4,434 nucleotides of DNA from a virus (lineage: Duplodnaviria; Heunggongvirae; Uroviricota; Caudoviricetes). The notes under the pieces were generated by a model. That model had not been told where the DNA came from and searched no databases. It was given only the letters and a program-made list of their open reading frames with translations. The stretch is from IMG/VR virus record IMGVR_UViG_2917403263_000002; one strand, given 5' to 3'. The translations under genes and the position numbers were made by a program. Shown here piece after piece: positions 1,011-3,052 of the stretch (the stretch's first letter is position 1; every line of letters begins with the position of its first letter).

Positions 1011-1687
1011 CACCGGACATTATCCTGCAGCGTACCGGGATCGACGTGAGAGCTGTCGAACAGGGAGATGATGCGTGGCACAAATTACGGCTCGGCGTCA
1101 TCACAGCTTCAGAAGTTCATAACGTAATAGCAAAACCCCGCTCCGGAAAAAAGTGGCCTGACATGAAAATGTCCTACTTCCACACCCTGCTTGCTGAGGT
1201 TTGCACCGGTGTGGCTCCGGAAGTTAACGCTAAAGCGCTGGCCTGGGGAAAACAGTACGAGAACGACGCCAGAGCCCTGTTTGAGTTCACTTCCGGCGTG
1301 AATGTTACTGAATCCCCGATCATCTATCGCGACGAAAGTATGCGTACCGCCTGCTCTCCAGATGGTTTATGCAGTGACGGCAACGGCCTTGAACTGAAAT
1401 GCCCGTTTACCTCCCGGGATTTCATGAAGTTCCGGCTCGGTGGTTTCGAGGCCATAAAGTCAGCTTACATGGCCCAGGTGCAGTACAGCATGTGGGTGAC
1501 GCGAAAAGATGCCTGGTACTTTGCCAACTATGACCCGCGTATGAAGCGTGAAGGCCTGCATTATGTCGTGATTGAGCGGGATGAAAAGTACATGGCGAGT
1601 TTTGACGAGATCGTGCCGGAGTTCATCGAAAAAATGGACGAGGCACTGGCTGAAATTGGTTTTGTATTTGGGGAGCAATGGCGATGA
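1007..1687 (+). CDS. exo: Lambda exonuclease (Red alpha, 5'-3' dsDNA exonuclease), complete, 226 aa
   Basis: The translation ([40 protein letters not shown]...[11 protein letters not shown]) is near-identical to lambda Exo as I recall it, and the length of 226 aa matches. The start is coupled to the bet remnant stop by an ATGA overlap. Confidence 0.95.
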
Positions 1688-1866
1688 AGCATCCTCACGA
1701 TAATATCCGGGTAGGCGCGATTACTTTCGTCTACTCCGTTACAAAGCGAGGCTGGGTATTTCCCGGCCTTTCTGTTATCCGAAATCCACTGAAAGCACAG
1801 CGACTGGCTGAGGAGATAAATAATAAACGAGGGGCTGTATGCACAAAGCATCTCCTGTTGAGTTAA
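1684..1866 (+). CDS. orf60a: Small exo-xis region protein, orf60a-like, 60 aa
   Basis: ATG 1684 overlaps the exo stop (ATGA) and has GGGGAG 9 nt upstream. The 183-nt length, the position directly after exo, and a 28-nt overlap with the next 192-nt ORF match the lambda orf60a/orf63 geometry as I remember it. The ORF track's 1678 start lies 6 nt upstream in frame and is the alternative. Assignment is by position and size, not by a recalled protein sequence. Confidence 0.65.
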
Positions 1867-2030
1867 GAACGAGTATCGAGATGGCACATAGCCTCGCTCA
1901 AATTGGAGTCAGGTTTGTGCCAATACCAGTAGAAACAGACGAAGAATTTCATACGTTAGCCGCATCCCTTTCACAAAAGCTGGAAATGATGGCGGCGAAA
2001 GCAGAGGCAAACGAGAGAGAGCTTGCATGA
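1839..2030 (+). CDS. orf63: Small exo-xis region protein, orf63-like, 63 aa
   Basis: A 192-nt ORF ([63 protein letters not shown]) overlapping the previous ORF by 28 nt. Size and position correspond to lambda orf63. GAGGGG lies 4 nt upstream of the ATG. Confidence 0.7.
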   Translation: MHKASPVELRTSIEMAHSLAQIGVRFVPIPVETDEEFHTLAASLSQKLEMMAAKAEANERELA

Positions 2031-2040
2031 CAACAACAGA

Positions 2041-2322
2041 ATGCATTTTTCTGGCGGCGGGCTTCATATTCTGTGTGCTTATGCTTTCCGGCATGGGGCT
2101 TGTTCAGTGACACCTCAGCAGAAAAACGCCCTTCGCAGCATTGCCCGTCAAGCTAACTCTGAAATCAAAAAAGCCAGACAGCAGTTTCCGGATAAAAACG
2201 TCGATGACATTTGCCGTAGCGTACTGAAGAAGCACCGCGAAACGGTAACGCTGATGGGATTCACACCGACTCATTTAAGCCTGGCGATCGGCATGTTAAA
2301 CGGCGTCTTTAAGGAGCGATGA
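2041..2322 (+). CDS. Hypothetical protein in the slot lambda uses for orf61; start uncertain (ATG 2041, TTG 2023 or GTG 2107)
   Basis: The frame is open from 1990 to TGA 2320..2322. The C-terminal ~70 codons (TPQQKNALRSIARQANSEIKKARQQFPDKNVDDICRSVLKKHRETVTLMGFTPTHLSLAIGMLNGVFKER) use ordinary enterobacterial codons and look coding. No start has a convincing Shine-Dalgarno. This is the same frame in which a lambda-like orf61 would start 20 nt inside orf63, but the product would be 71-99 aa rather than 61, so it is not a simple orf61 copy. I do not recognise the protein. Confidence 0.5.
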   Translation: MHFSGGGLHILCAYAFRHGACSVTPQQKNALRSIARQANSEIKKARQQFPDKNVDDICRSVLKKHRETVTLMGFTPTHLSLAIGMLNGVFKER

Positions 2323-2342
2323 ACATGAAAAGCAAAATCATC

Positions 2343-2370
2343 AGGGAGCTACAGGCTCCTTTTTTATTAT
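2343..2370 (+). terminator. Candidate intrinsic terminator: GGGAGC / GCTCCT stem, 5-nt loop, then TTTTTATTATT
   Basis: Bases 2344..2349 (GGGAGC) can pair with 2355..2360 (GCTCCT) as a 6-bp stem with one G-U pair and loop TACAG, directly followed by a T-rich run at 2360..2370. It sits between the 2041..2322 ORF and the TraR-like gene. The stem is short, so this is a weak call. Confidence 0.3.
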
Positions 2371-2420
2371 TCGCATTCACCCTCAAGCGTATTAACCAAC
2401 AATTCAGGGATTAATGGAAG

Positions 2421-2639
2421 ATGGCAGACATCATTGATTCAGCATCAGAAATCGAAGAATTACAGCGCAATACAGCAATAAAAATGCGTCGTCTGAACTA
2501 CCAGACTGTATCTGCCACTCATTGTTGTGAGTGTGGCGATCCGATAGATGAGCGAAGACGCCTGGTCGTTCAGGGTTGTCGGACTTGTGCAAGTTGCCAG
2601 GAGGAGATCGAACTTAAGAACAAACAATGGGGATTGTGA
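2421..2639 (+). CDS. TraR/DksA-family C4 zinc-finger protein (lambda Orf73-like), 72 aa
   Basis: The translation MADIIDSASEIEELQRNTAIKMRRLNYQTVSATHCCECGDPIDERRRLVVQGCRTCASCQEEIELKNKQWGL has an acidic N-terminal helix followed by CxxC...(17 residues)...CxxC, the hallmark of TraR/DksA-type zinc fingers such as F-plasmid TraR and lambda Orf73. It lies where lambda orf73 sits in the exo-xis region. Confidence 0.8.
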   Translation: MADIIDSASEIEELQRNTAIKMRRLNYQTVSATHCCECGDPIDERRRLVVQGCRTCASCQEEIELKNKQWGL

Positions 2640-2686
2640 TGGCCTCAAAGCAGCAAATTTCAACATCGTCCAACTGAGGTGTAAAA

Positions 2687-2926
2687 ATGTTCAGAATCAT
2701 TTTTCCTAACACCTGGTACGTCGACCACCACGGCACTCCCTGCAAAATCCTGCGTTCTACCCACAACAAAGTTCACTACATCCGAAAAGGCAGAACATGT
2801 ATCGCCAGCATGTTCCGCTTTAATCATGACTTTGAACCTGTGAATAAAGCTGATGCAGATCGGATAGCAGAAGAGACCGAAACGGCAGAACACATTAAGA
2901 AGTTACGTGCCATACGCAGGAAATAG
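2687..2926 (+). CDS. Hypothetical small protein, 79 aa, function unknown
   Basis: ATG 2687 is preceded by GAGGTG with a 5-nt spacer. It is co-directional with the exo-to-int operon and ends 139 nt before xis. The translation MFRIIFPNTWYVDHHGTPCKILRSTHNKVHYIRKGRTCIASMFRFNHDFEPVNKADADRIAEETETAEHIKKLRAIRRK has a beta-rich N-terminal half and a charged helical C-terminus. It vaguely recalls small DUF-type proteins found next to xis in enterobacterial prophages, but I cannot assign a family from memory. It occupies the position of ea22/ea8.5 in lambda without resembling either in size. Confidence 0.6.
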   Translation: MFRIIFPNTWYVDHHGTPCKILRSTHNKVHYIRKGRTCIASMFRFNHDFEPVNKADADRIAEETETAEHIKKLRAIRRK

Positions 2927-3052
2927 AAAAATTGATAAATTCAATACTGCATTTCTCAGCATTAAATTTATCTCTATGACCAGTCAAGAGATGTACCTGC
3001 CATGAGCTTAATATCATGTCAGATATATCGGTCACAAACTCCCTCAGCAGCT

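Follow-up and report, generated by a model that had tools for sequence, protein, structure and literature searches.

An exo-xis block of a lambdoid prophage remnant, with lambda DNA up to the end of orf73 and a DUF4222 gene in place of ea22

How much of the exo-xis region of a prophage remnant is lambda-like, and what takes over where the likeness stops? The question is raised by a stretch of 4,434 nucleotides from a virus of the Caudoviricetes (IMG/VR record IMGVR_UViG_2917403263_000002), termed the window here. An earlier note, made from the letters alone, had described positions 1684..2930 as an exo-xis accessory region with a lambda-like proximal half and a non-lambda distal half. The lambda pattern was said to stop past orf63 (~2030), where a longer open reading frame (ORF) would replace orf61. 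We aligned the window with lambda 27500..33500 (blastn and MAFFT). Window 872..2616 is colinear with lambda 32163..30418; the two are 96.6% identical, and the only indel is of 1 nt. The unbroken span includes orf60a, orf63, the orf61 region, a 31-codon ORF and nearly all of orf73. Identity to lambda is 95.4% over orf60a plus orf63, 92.6% and 98.7% in two parts of the orf61 region, 98.0% over 2323..2420 and 94.4% in orf73 up to 2616. Beyond 2616 similarity to lambda is nil until a weak match in int, the product of which is 35% identical to lambda Int. The homology break is thus at ~2616, in the last ~8 codons of orf73, and not at ~2030. The lambda-like start of the region stands, and all that is left of the non-lambda distal half is a single gene and the int/xis module.

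The features of the region are as follows.

1007..1687, + strand: exo, lambda exonuclease, 226 aa, intact (phrog_149, E = 5.3e-66)
1684..1866, + strand: orf60a (DUF1317), 60 aa (PF07026, E = 1.6e-40)
1748..1770, + strand: t1 terminator-like hairpin (hairpin scan)
1839..2030, + strand: orf63 (DUF1382), 63 aa (PF07131, E = 1.2e-31)
2027..2110, + strand: candidate 27-aa hydrophobic small ORF, MTTTECIFLAAGFIFCVLMLSGMGLVQ (frame conservation)
2107..2322, + strand: orf61 core, 71 aa from GTG 2107, with a 93-aa reading from ATG 2041 (phrog_303, E = 8.4e-36)
2167..2172, + strand: A6 run, A7 in lambda (alignment to lambda)
2319..2414, + strand: 31-codon ORF, 29 codons from ATG 2325, which an AAGGAG Shine-Dalgarno sequence precedes
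2343..2371, + strand: t2 terminator-like hairpin (2343..2361) and T-run, with the predicted p1 promoter overlapping (hairpin scan)
2421..2639, + strand: orf73, TraR/DksA-type zinc-finger protein, 72 aa (PF01258)
2687..2926, + strand: DUF4222 gene, 79 aa (PF13973, E = 1.4e-19; phrog_285, E = 9.6e-37)
2934..2972, no strand assigned: AT-rich imperfect inverted repeat of 16 pairs between the DUF4222 stop and xis (hairpin scan)

exo, xis and every ORF between them lie on the + strand. For comparison with related elements, 85 loci were fetched from a viral contig collection and elsewhere. In these loci homology to the window repeatedly ends at ~2020, ~2615 and ~2915; these recurrent end points coincide with gene boundaries, as is usual in lambdoid mosaics. 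We are highly confident that the region is an ordinary exo-xis block of a lambdoid prophage, with mosaic structure and functions predicted by homology. On this strand, the one read from pL when the phage is intact, the order is exo, orf60a, orf63, possibly a 27-aa membrane peptide, an untruncated orf61, the 29/31-codon ORF with t2, orf73, the DUF4222 gene and a non-lambda xis/int module whose closest relatives lie beside icd. The mosaic comprises lambda DNA (~97%) from bet to the last orf73 codons, a junction at ~2616 to DUF4222 and a second at ~2915 to xis/int. A conserved lambdoid exo-xis block has been described, with ea22 as its fifth conserved gene (PMC8614690). Here orf60a, orf63, orf61 and orf73 were found and ea22 was absent.

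The proximal genes match lambda closely. orf60a spans 183 nt and its ATG overlaps the exo stop codon as ATGA (1684-1687). orf63 spans 192 nt, its first 28 nt shared with orf60a, and lambda has exactly this overlap (31169..31351 and 31005..31196), so that the geometry given in the earlier note was confirmed to the nucleotide. exo is 98.4% identical to lambda exo at the nucleotide level. Orf60a shares 59/60 residues with its lambda counterpart and Orf63 shares 56/63. Orf63 also matches PDB 8DSB (E = 4.8e-31), which we take, from the residue-by-residue match, to be the nuclear magnetic resonance entry of lambda Orf63; the deposit is labelled 'Xis (Excision72)'. A sequence search for solved structures of DUF4222, Orf61 and Orf60a returned nothing meaningful.

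What, then, is the longer ORF? The frame 2041..2322 exists and is open from 2023. The 61-codon orf61 of lambda and window 2023..2322 share the same frame up to an A-run, and lambda Orf61 matches the window at 2014..2178 (tblastn, E = 2.4e-28). The sole indel in the lambda alignment is this run, A6 in the window (2167..2172) and A7 in lambda, where the extra A leads orf61 into a stop codon seven codons further on. No indel relative to the window is present in 82/85 related loci, and the extra A occurs in lambda only. Because lambda shares the frame up to the A-run and 82/85 loci are free of the indel, the ORF 2041..2322 is orf61 itself in its usual, untruncated form, and not a replacement for it: the DNA is orthologous and A6 versus A7 is the only structural difference. 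Next to the 93-aa protein of phi24B and 933W, lambda Orf61 had already been noted to 'appear to be truncated' (Donaldson, PMC8614690), and the window carries this ordinary form with sequence drift. PHROGs splits the two forms into phrog_303 (long) and phrog_26061 (the lambda stub), both of which match the window.

The view that homology stops after orf63, and that 2031..2930 holds non-lambda cargo with a new, longer gene instead of orf61, drew on the 61-codon annotation in lambda, while the window frame extends to 2322, and on the missing ea22, ea8.5 and orf55. Against the 92.6-98.7% identity to lambda over 2031..2420 and 94.4% over 2421..2616, an orf61 length difference of one A in a homopolymer with lambda as the outlier among 85 loci, and the published truncation of lambda Orf61 (PMC8614690), it is extremely improbable; the supposed homology break is already refuted by the alignment and the indel survey. 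Reference lambda is atypical at orf61, and comparisons built on its 61-codon annotation mislead.

The Shiga toxin (Stx) phages phi24B and 933W encode the same untruncated 93-aa frame, modelled as a helical, homeodomain-like protein. Unlike the window, they retain ea22 and more downstream genes. The 71-aa core starts with GTG in the window and with ATG in most relatives. In RefSeq records the 71-aa product is called 'cell division protein ZapA' (window 2107..2322; L004 9111..9326). The ZapA Pfam model scored 13.7 bits on it, below the cutoff of 23.8 (E = 0.078), no NCBIfam model matched, and a fold search returned no ZapA-like fold. With a Pfam score under the threshold and no ZapA from the fold search, the name seems to be an over-call that has passed into many E. 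coli records, and the label is unsupported. The proteins P0064 and P0069 (49-54% identity), considered as distant Orf61 homologues, were rejected; they are frameshifted copies of the same gene and not divergent relatives. One locus shows 1-base deletions exactly 60 nt apart, at the equivalents of window 2039, 2099, 2159, 2219 and 2279. We take this locus to be L087 (a contig of GCA_002230785.1), an unconfirmed assignment. The deletions look like a sequence-file artefact rather than biology, which would explain the apparently divergent P0069.

Where does orf61 start? A 27-codon ORF is fitted between orf63 and the 71-aa core: its ATG at 2027 overlaps the orf63 stop codon (ATGA) and its TGA overlaps GTG 2107. 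The peptide MTTTECIFLAAGFIFCVLMLSGMGLVQ is hydrophobic, with a grand average of hydropathy of 1.64, and 25/27 residues are identical in lambda. Variable sites were scored in 40 haplotypes. Within the orf61 core (2110..2319), the orf61 frame places 22/27 of them in codon position 3. Over 2030..2106, by comparison, only 2/18 are third positions in the orf61 frame and 10/18 in the 27-codon frame, and in the orf61 frame 4 of these changes are synonymous and 14 non-synonymous. The binomial tails of the codon-position counts are 0.03 and 0.04, for haplotypes that are phylogenetically non-independent; the Orf61 family is narrow and the frame test rests on 40 close haplotypes. Purine-rich Shine-Dalgarno-like sequences precede the starts at 2027 and 2107, and none is present ahead of ATG 2041. 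In 14 loci a gene of ~189 codons replaces orf63 and its TGA again overlaps the 27-codon ATG, with a GGGAGG Shine-Dalgarno sequence upstream. In the RefSeq annotation of phage 4A7, as in that of an E. coli genome, the start of orf61 is placed at 2107, and a mosaic variant carries the 71-aa gene directly behind an unrelated 250-aa gene, with the upstream piece missing. Some E. coli GenBank records list the 27-aa peptide as hypothetical.

This evidence is suggestive and not decisive. At close to an even chance, 2027..2110 (lambda 31024..30928) may encode a separate, conserved, single-pass membrane peptide of 27 aa, translationally coupled to orf63 and to a 71-aa orf61. Somewhat more doubtful, and still a substantial possibility, is that orf61 is a single 93-aa gene from ATG 2041, as in phi24B and 1H12, with the 27-codon ORF a chance frame. 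The 93-aa frame is open past ATG 2041 in all haplotypes, the long form is modelled by phrog_303 and is the annotated orf61 of phage 1H12, and the only extra ORFs that PMC8614690 gives from ribosome profiling are of 7 aa and 31 aa, none of 27 aa. The Shine-Dalgarno sequences, the codon-position counts, the RefSeq start and the mosaic variant speak against the single gene, as does the inconsistent modelling of Orf61 residues 1-23 in PMC8614690. If the separate peptide is real, the 61-codon 'orf61' of lambda would be an annotation chimera of a wrong frame and a frameshifted stub, and published delta-orf61 phenotypes and the 'orf61' ribosome-profiling signal could partly belong to the 27-aa peptide.

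The next ORF downstream is the 31-codon ORF (2319..2414), whose product is identical in lambda and which is annotated as hypothetical in phage 1H12. Judged by its length, it is probably the 31-aa 'orf2313' from ribosome profiling cited in PMC8614690. Terminators t1 and t2 and the promoter p1 have been predicted for lambda and phi24B (Bloch et al. 2014, PMC4195576). Compared by eye with the published sequences (PMC4195576), the window t1 (1748..1770) matches that of lambda/phi24B, and so do t2 and the p1 boxes (-35 TCATCA, -10 TTTTATTAT). The t2 hairpin and T-run sit within the conserved 29/31-codon ORF, and the predicted p1 overlaps the same bases. Speculatively, translation of the small ORF could therefore affect termination at t2.

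Is the following gene a TraR-type orf73? Indeed, the gene at 2421..2639 scores 36.2 bits with PF01258 (zf-dskA_traR), above the cutoff of 24.9, in agreement with the earlier note. TIGR02419 scores 52.9, under its cutoff of 59.7, and a match to TraR PDB 5W1S was obtained (E = 2e-5). Orf73 shares with F-plasmid TraR and lambda Orf73 the DxxDxA motif (DIIDSA, residues 3-8), a C4 zinc finger and a similar length; its cysteines are at 35, 36, 38, 53, 56 and 59. It has 63 residues identical to lambda Orf73. Residues 1-60 are nearly the same in both, in contrast to the C-terminus, which contains the mosaic junction and therefore differs over its last ~10 residues.

What lies beyond the junction? The lambda proteins Ea22, Ea8.5, Orf55 and Xis have no homologue in the window (tblastn, E > 0.3; best Ea22 match E = 2.2), so the absence of ea22 and ea8.5 is confirmed and extends to orf55. 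A single gene occupies their place, as had been claimed. It is not an unrecognised one: PF13973 (DUF4222) scores 69.8 bits on the 79-aa product against a cutoff of 27, and phrog_285 matches as well. Homologues (n = 105) are found across the Enterobacteriaceae (Escherichia, Salmonella, Citrobacter, Enterobacter) at 58-97% identity. The gene at 2687..2926 is not of ea type and is ordinary and widely annotated. Among the fetched loci with enough downstream DNA, the gene directly after orf73 is DUF4222 in 36, ea22 in 24 and orf55 in 8. DUF4222 is thus the commonest gene at this place in these loci, and ea22, more often absent from it than present, is not universal there. Loci that carry other int modules match the window only as far as ~2915, and the AT-rich repeat 2934..2972 therefore travels with the xis/int module.

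RgdR (ECs1581) is the single characterised DUF4222 member. This prophage-encoded protein of enterohaemorrhagic E. coli O157:H7 activates LEE1 and represses motility, and in electrophoretic mobility shift assays it bound DNA without sequence specificity (PMC3378721). It matches DUF4222 with E = 2.1e-23 and is 22% identical to the window protein. Both are small, prophage-borne and of the same Pfam family; RgdR has 99 aa compared with 79 aa, and its gene lies in a P4-like element beside a primase gene, not in an exo-xis region. The RgdR element, CP-933C/OI-51, was considered as an icd-site element and rejected, being a P4-like element between roxA and phoQ. By analogy with this distant relative, the DUF4222 protein of the window most likely regulates host transcription as a small protein associated with nucleic acid or RNA polymerase. 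As a common gene after orf73 in the family of the regulator RgdR, it offers a testable lead on a very common prophage gene.

What would such a block do? We infer functions for its genes by homology. Orf73 would bind in the RNA polymerase secondary channel and shut down rRNA and ribosomal-protein promoters, as judged from lambda Orf73, which binds there and inhibits rRNA promoters including rrnB P1 (PMC9239242). Going by reports on lambda and phi24B, Orf60a, Orf63 and Orf61 would bias the lysis-lysogeny decision to lysis, and the DUF4222 protein would add a host-transcription regulator of the RgdR kind. Some observations weigh against this picture. The RGD motif after which RgdR is named, and which has been linked to activation of type III secretion (PMC3378721), is missing from the window DUF4222 protein in the BLASTP alignment; RgdR residue 24 stands opposite window residue 11, the preceding window residues being F-P-N-T-W, and the RGD motif occupies RgdR 20-22. 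The activity of Orf73 could differ from that of its lambda counterpart in view of the divergent C-terminal ~10 residues, because the C-terminal part of TraR contacts RNA polymerase. Finally, icd as the integration site is read from relatives, because the window ends at the int stop codon.

How common is the block? The interval 1684..2930 (1247 nt) is 99% identical to eleven phage records, among them 1H12 and Lambda_2E9, and 96% identical to 4A7. At a coverage of at least 80% it is present in 34 phage records altogether and in 1741/5426 complete E. coli genomes, about a third. In the annotations of 1H12 and 4A7 the genes follow in the same order up to and including xis and int, and in 4A7 an icd fragment adjoins int. 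1H12, Lambda_2E9 and 4A7, which share the block at 96-99% identity and in the same order, are complete temperate phages with the same int module, in contrast to the window, a deletion remnant. The block is an ordinary, already known and very common lambdoid module. Its discovery value is low, since it is a textbook module and the proximal genes are already under study.

How did the block come to stand in so short an element? The flanking features of the window are these.

1..585, - strand: tfa, tail fibre assembly gene, 194 aa (ORF), at the far end of the prophage remnant
585..875, - strand: 3' fragment of stf, the side tail fibre gene, of which the last ~74 codons form the ORF 585..809
872..1010, + strand: bet 3' fragment, the final ~46 codons (lambda homology from 872 = lambda 32163, within bet 32025..32810)
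3066..3302, + strand: excisionase gene xis, 78 aa, not lambda-type (PF07825, E = 6.7e-6; phrog_629, E = 5.4e-36)
3292..4434, + strand: tyrosine integrase gene int, 380 aa (PF09003 and PF00589)

Homology to phage stf/tfa runs to 873-875 and bet homology begins at 872, so that the 3' end of stf (-) abuts the 3' part of bet (+) at 872-875. The element is a prophage remnant, as the earlier note had held. In such a prophage the genes run int ... exo bet ... N, immunity, replication, lysis, heads, tails ... stf tfa. The window is explained by one internal deletion between mid-bet and a point close to the stf end, and everything that stood between stf and bet has been lost. The precise joint at 872..875 marks the loss of the prophage's immunity, replication, lysis and morphogenesis genes, and of pL. 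With pL gone, the predicted internal p1 or read-through has to supply any expression. In related loci icd lies directly beside the same type of int, and related short remnants in E. coli are found between icd and an icd pseudogene fragment.

Were the exo-xis genes kept for a purpose? The earlier note had called them the main cargo that the remnant has kept. Being next to int, at one end of the prophage, the block escapes any internal deletion by default. Nor is the set uniformly preserved, since one related icd remnant has a frameshifted exo and another a DGQHR gene in place of orf63 and orf61; pL, moreover, is deleted. Retention by selection, as domesticated host-modulating cargo rather than as deletion leftovers, is in our judgement unlikely, even though every ORF from exo to int is intact in the window, in several E. 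coli lineages similar short icd remnants retain both orf73 and the DUF4222 gene, and one tiny remnant at another site has kept only orf61, orf73, DUF4222, xis and int. It would also accord with the action of Orf73 and RgdR-type proteins on host transcription. Survival of the block is most simply due to its position next to int, with cargo selection possible.

The two shared overlaps (ATGA with exo; 28 nt between orf60a and orf63) and the DNA in common at 96.6%, from bet to the last codons of orf73, tie the block to lambda's exo-xis region, from which it differs in the unshifted orf61 (A6, not A7), the C-terminus of Orf73, one DUF4222 gene in place of ea22, ea8.5 and orf55, and another xis/int module (Int 35% identical). 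Between orf60a and orf73 there appears to be a hotspot for cargo. In related icd-site elements the orf63 region, with orf61 or without it, has given way to other genes: an unannotated 250-aa one in locus L088 (1741..2493) and, in locus L005 (7847..8911), one for a 354-aa DGQHR-domain protein. A defence role for the exo-xis ORFs was considered and rejected, with zero PADLOC matches to any of them.

Rfam models detected no structured RNA in 1684..2930. At the other end of the window, tfa is 96-98.6% identical to tfa of lambdoid phages and is named tail fiber assembly protein in related E. coli loci. The Rfam family IS009 (RF02111) gave a full-length match at 44..242 on the - strand (226.8 bits, E = 1.2e-56), wholly inside tfa, and this 'sRNA' (small RNA) family therefore coincides with the tfa coding sequence in the window.

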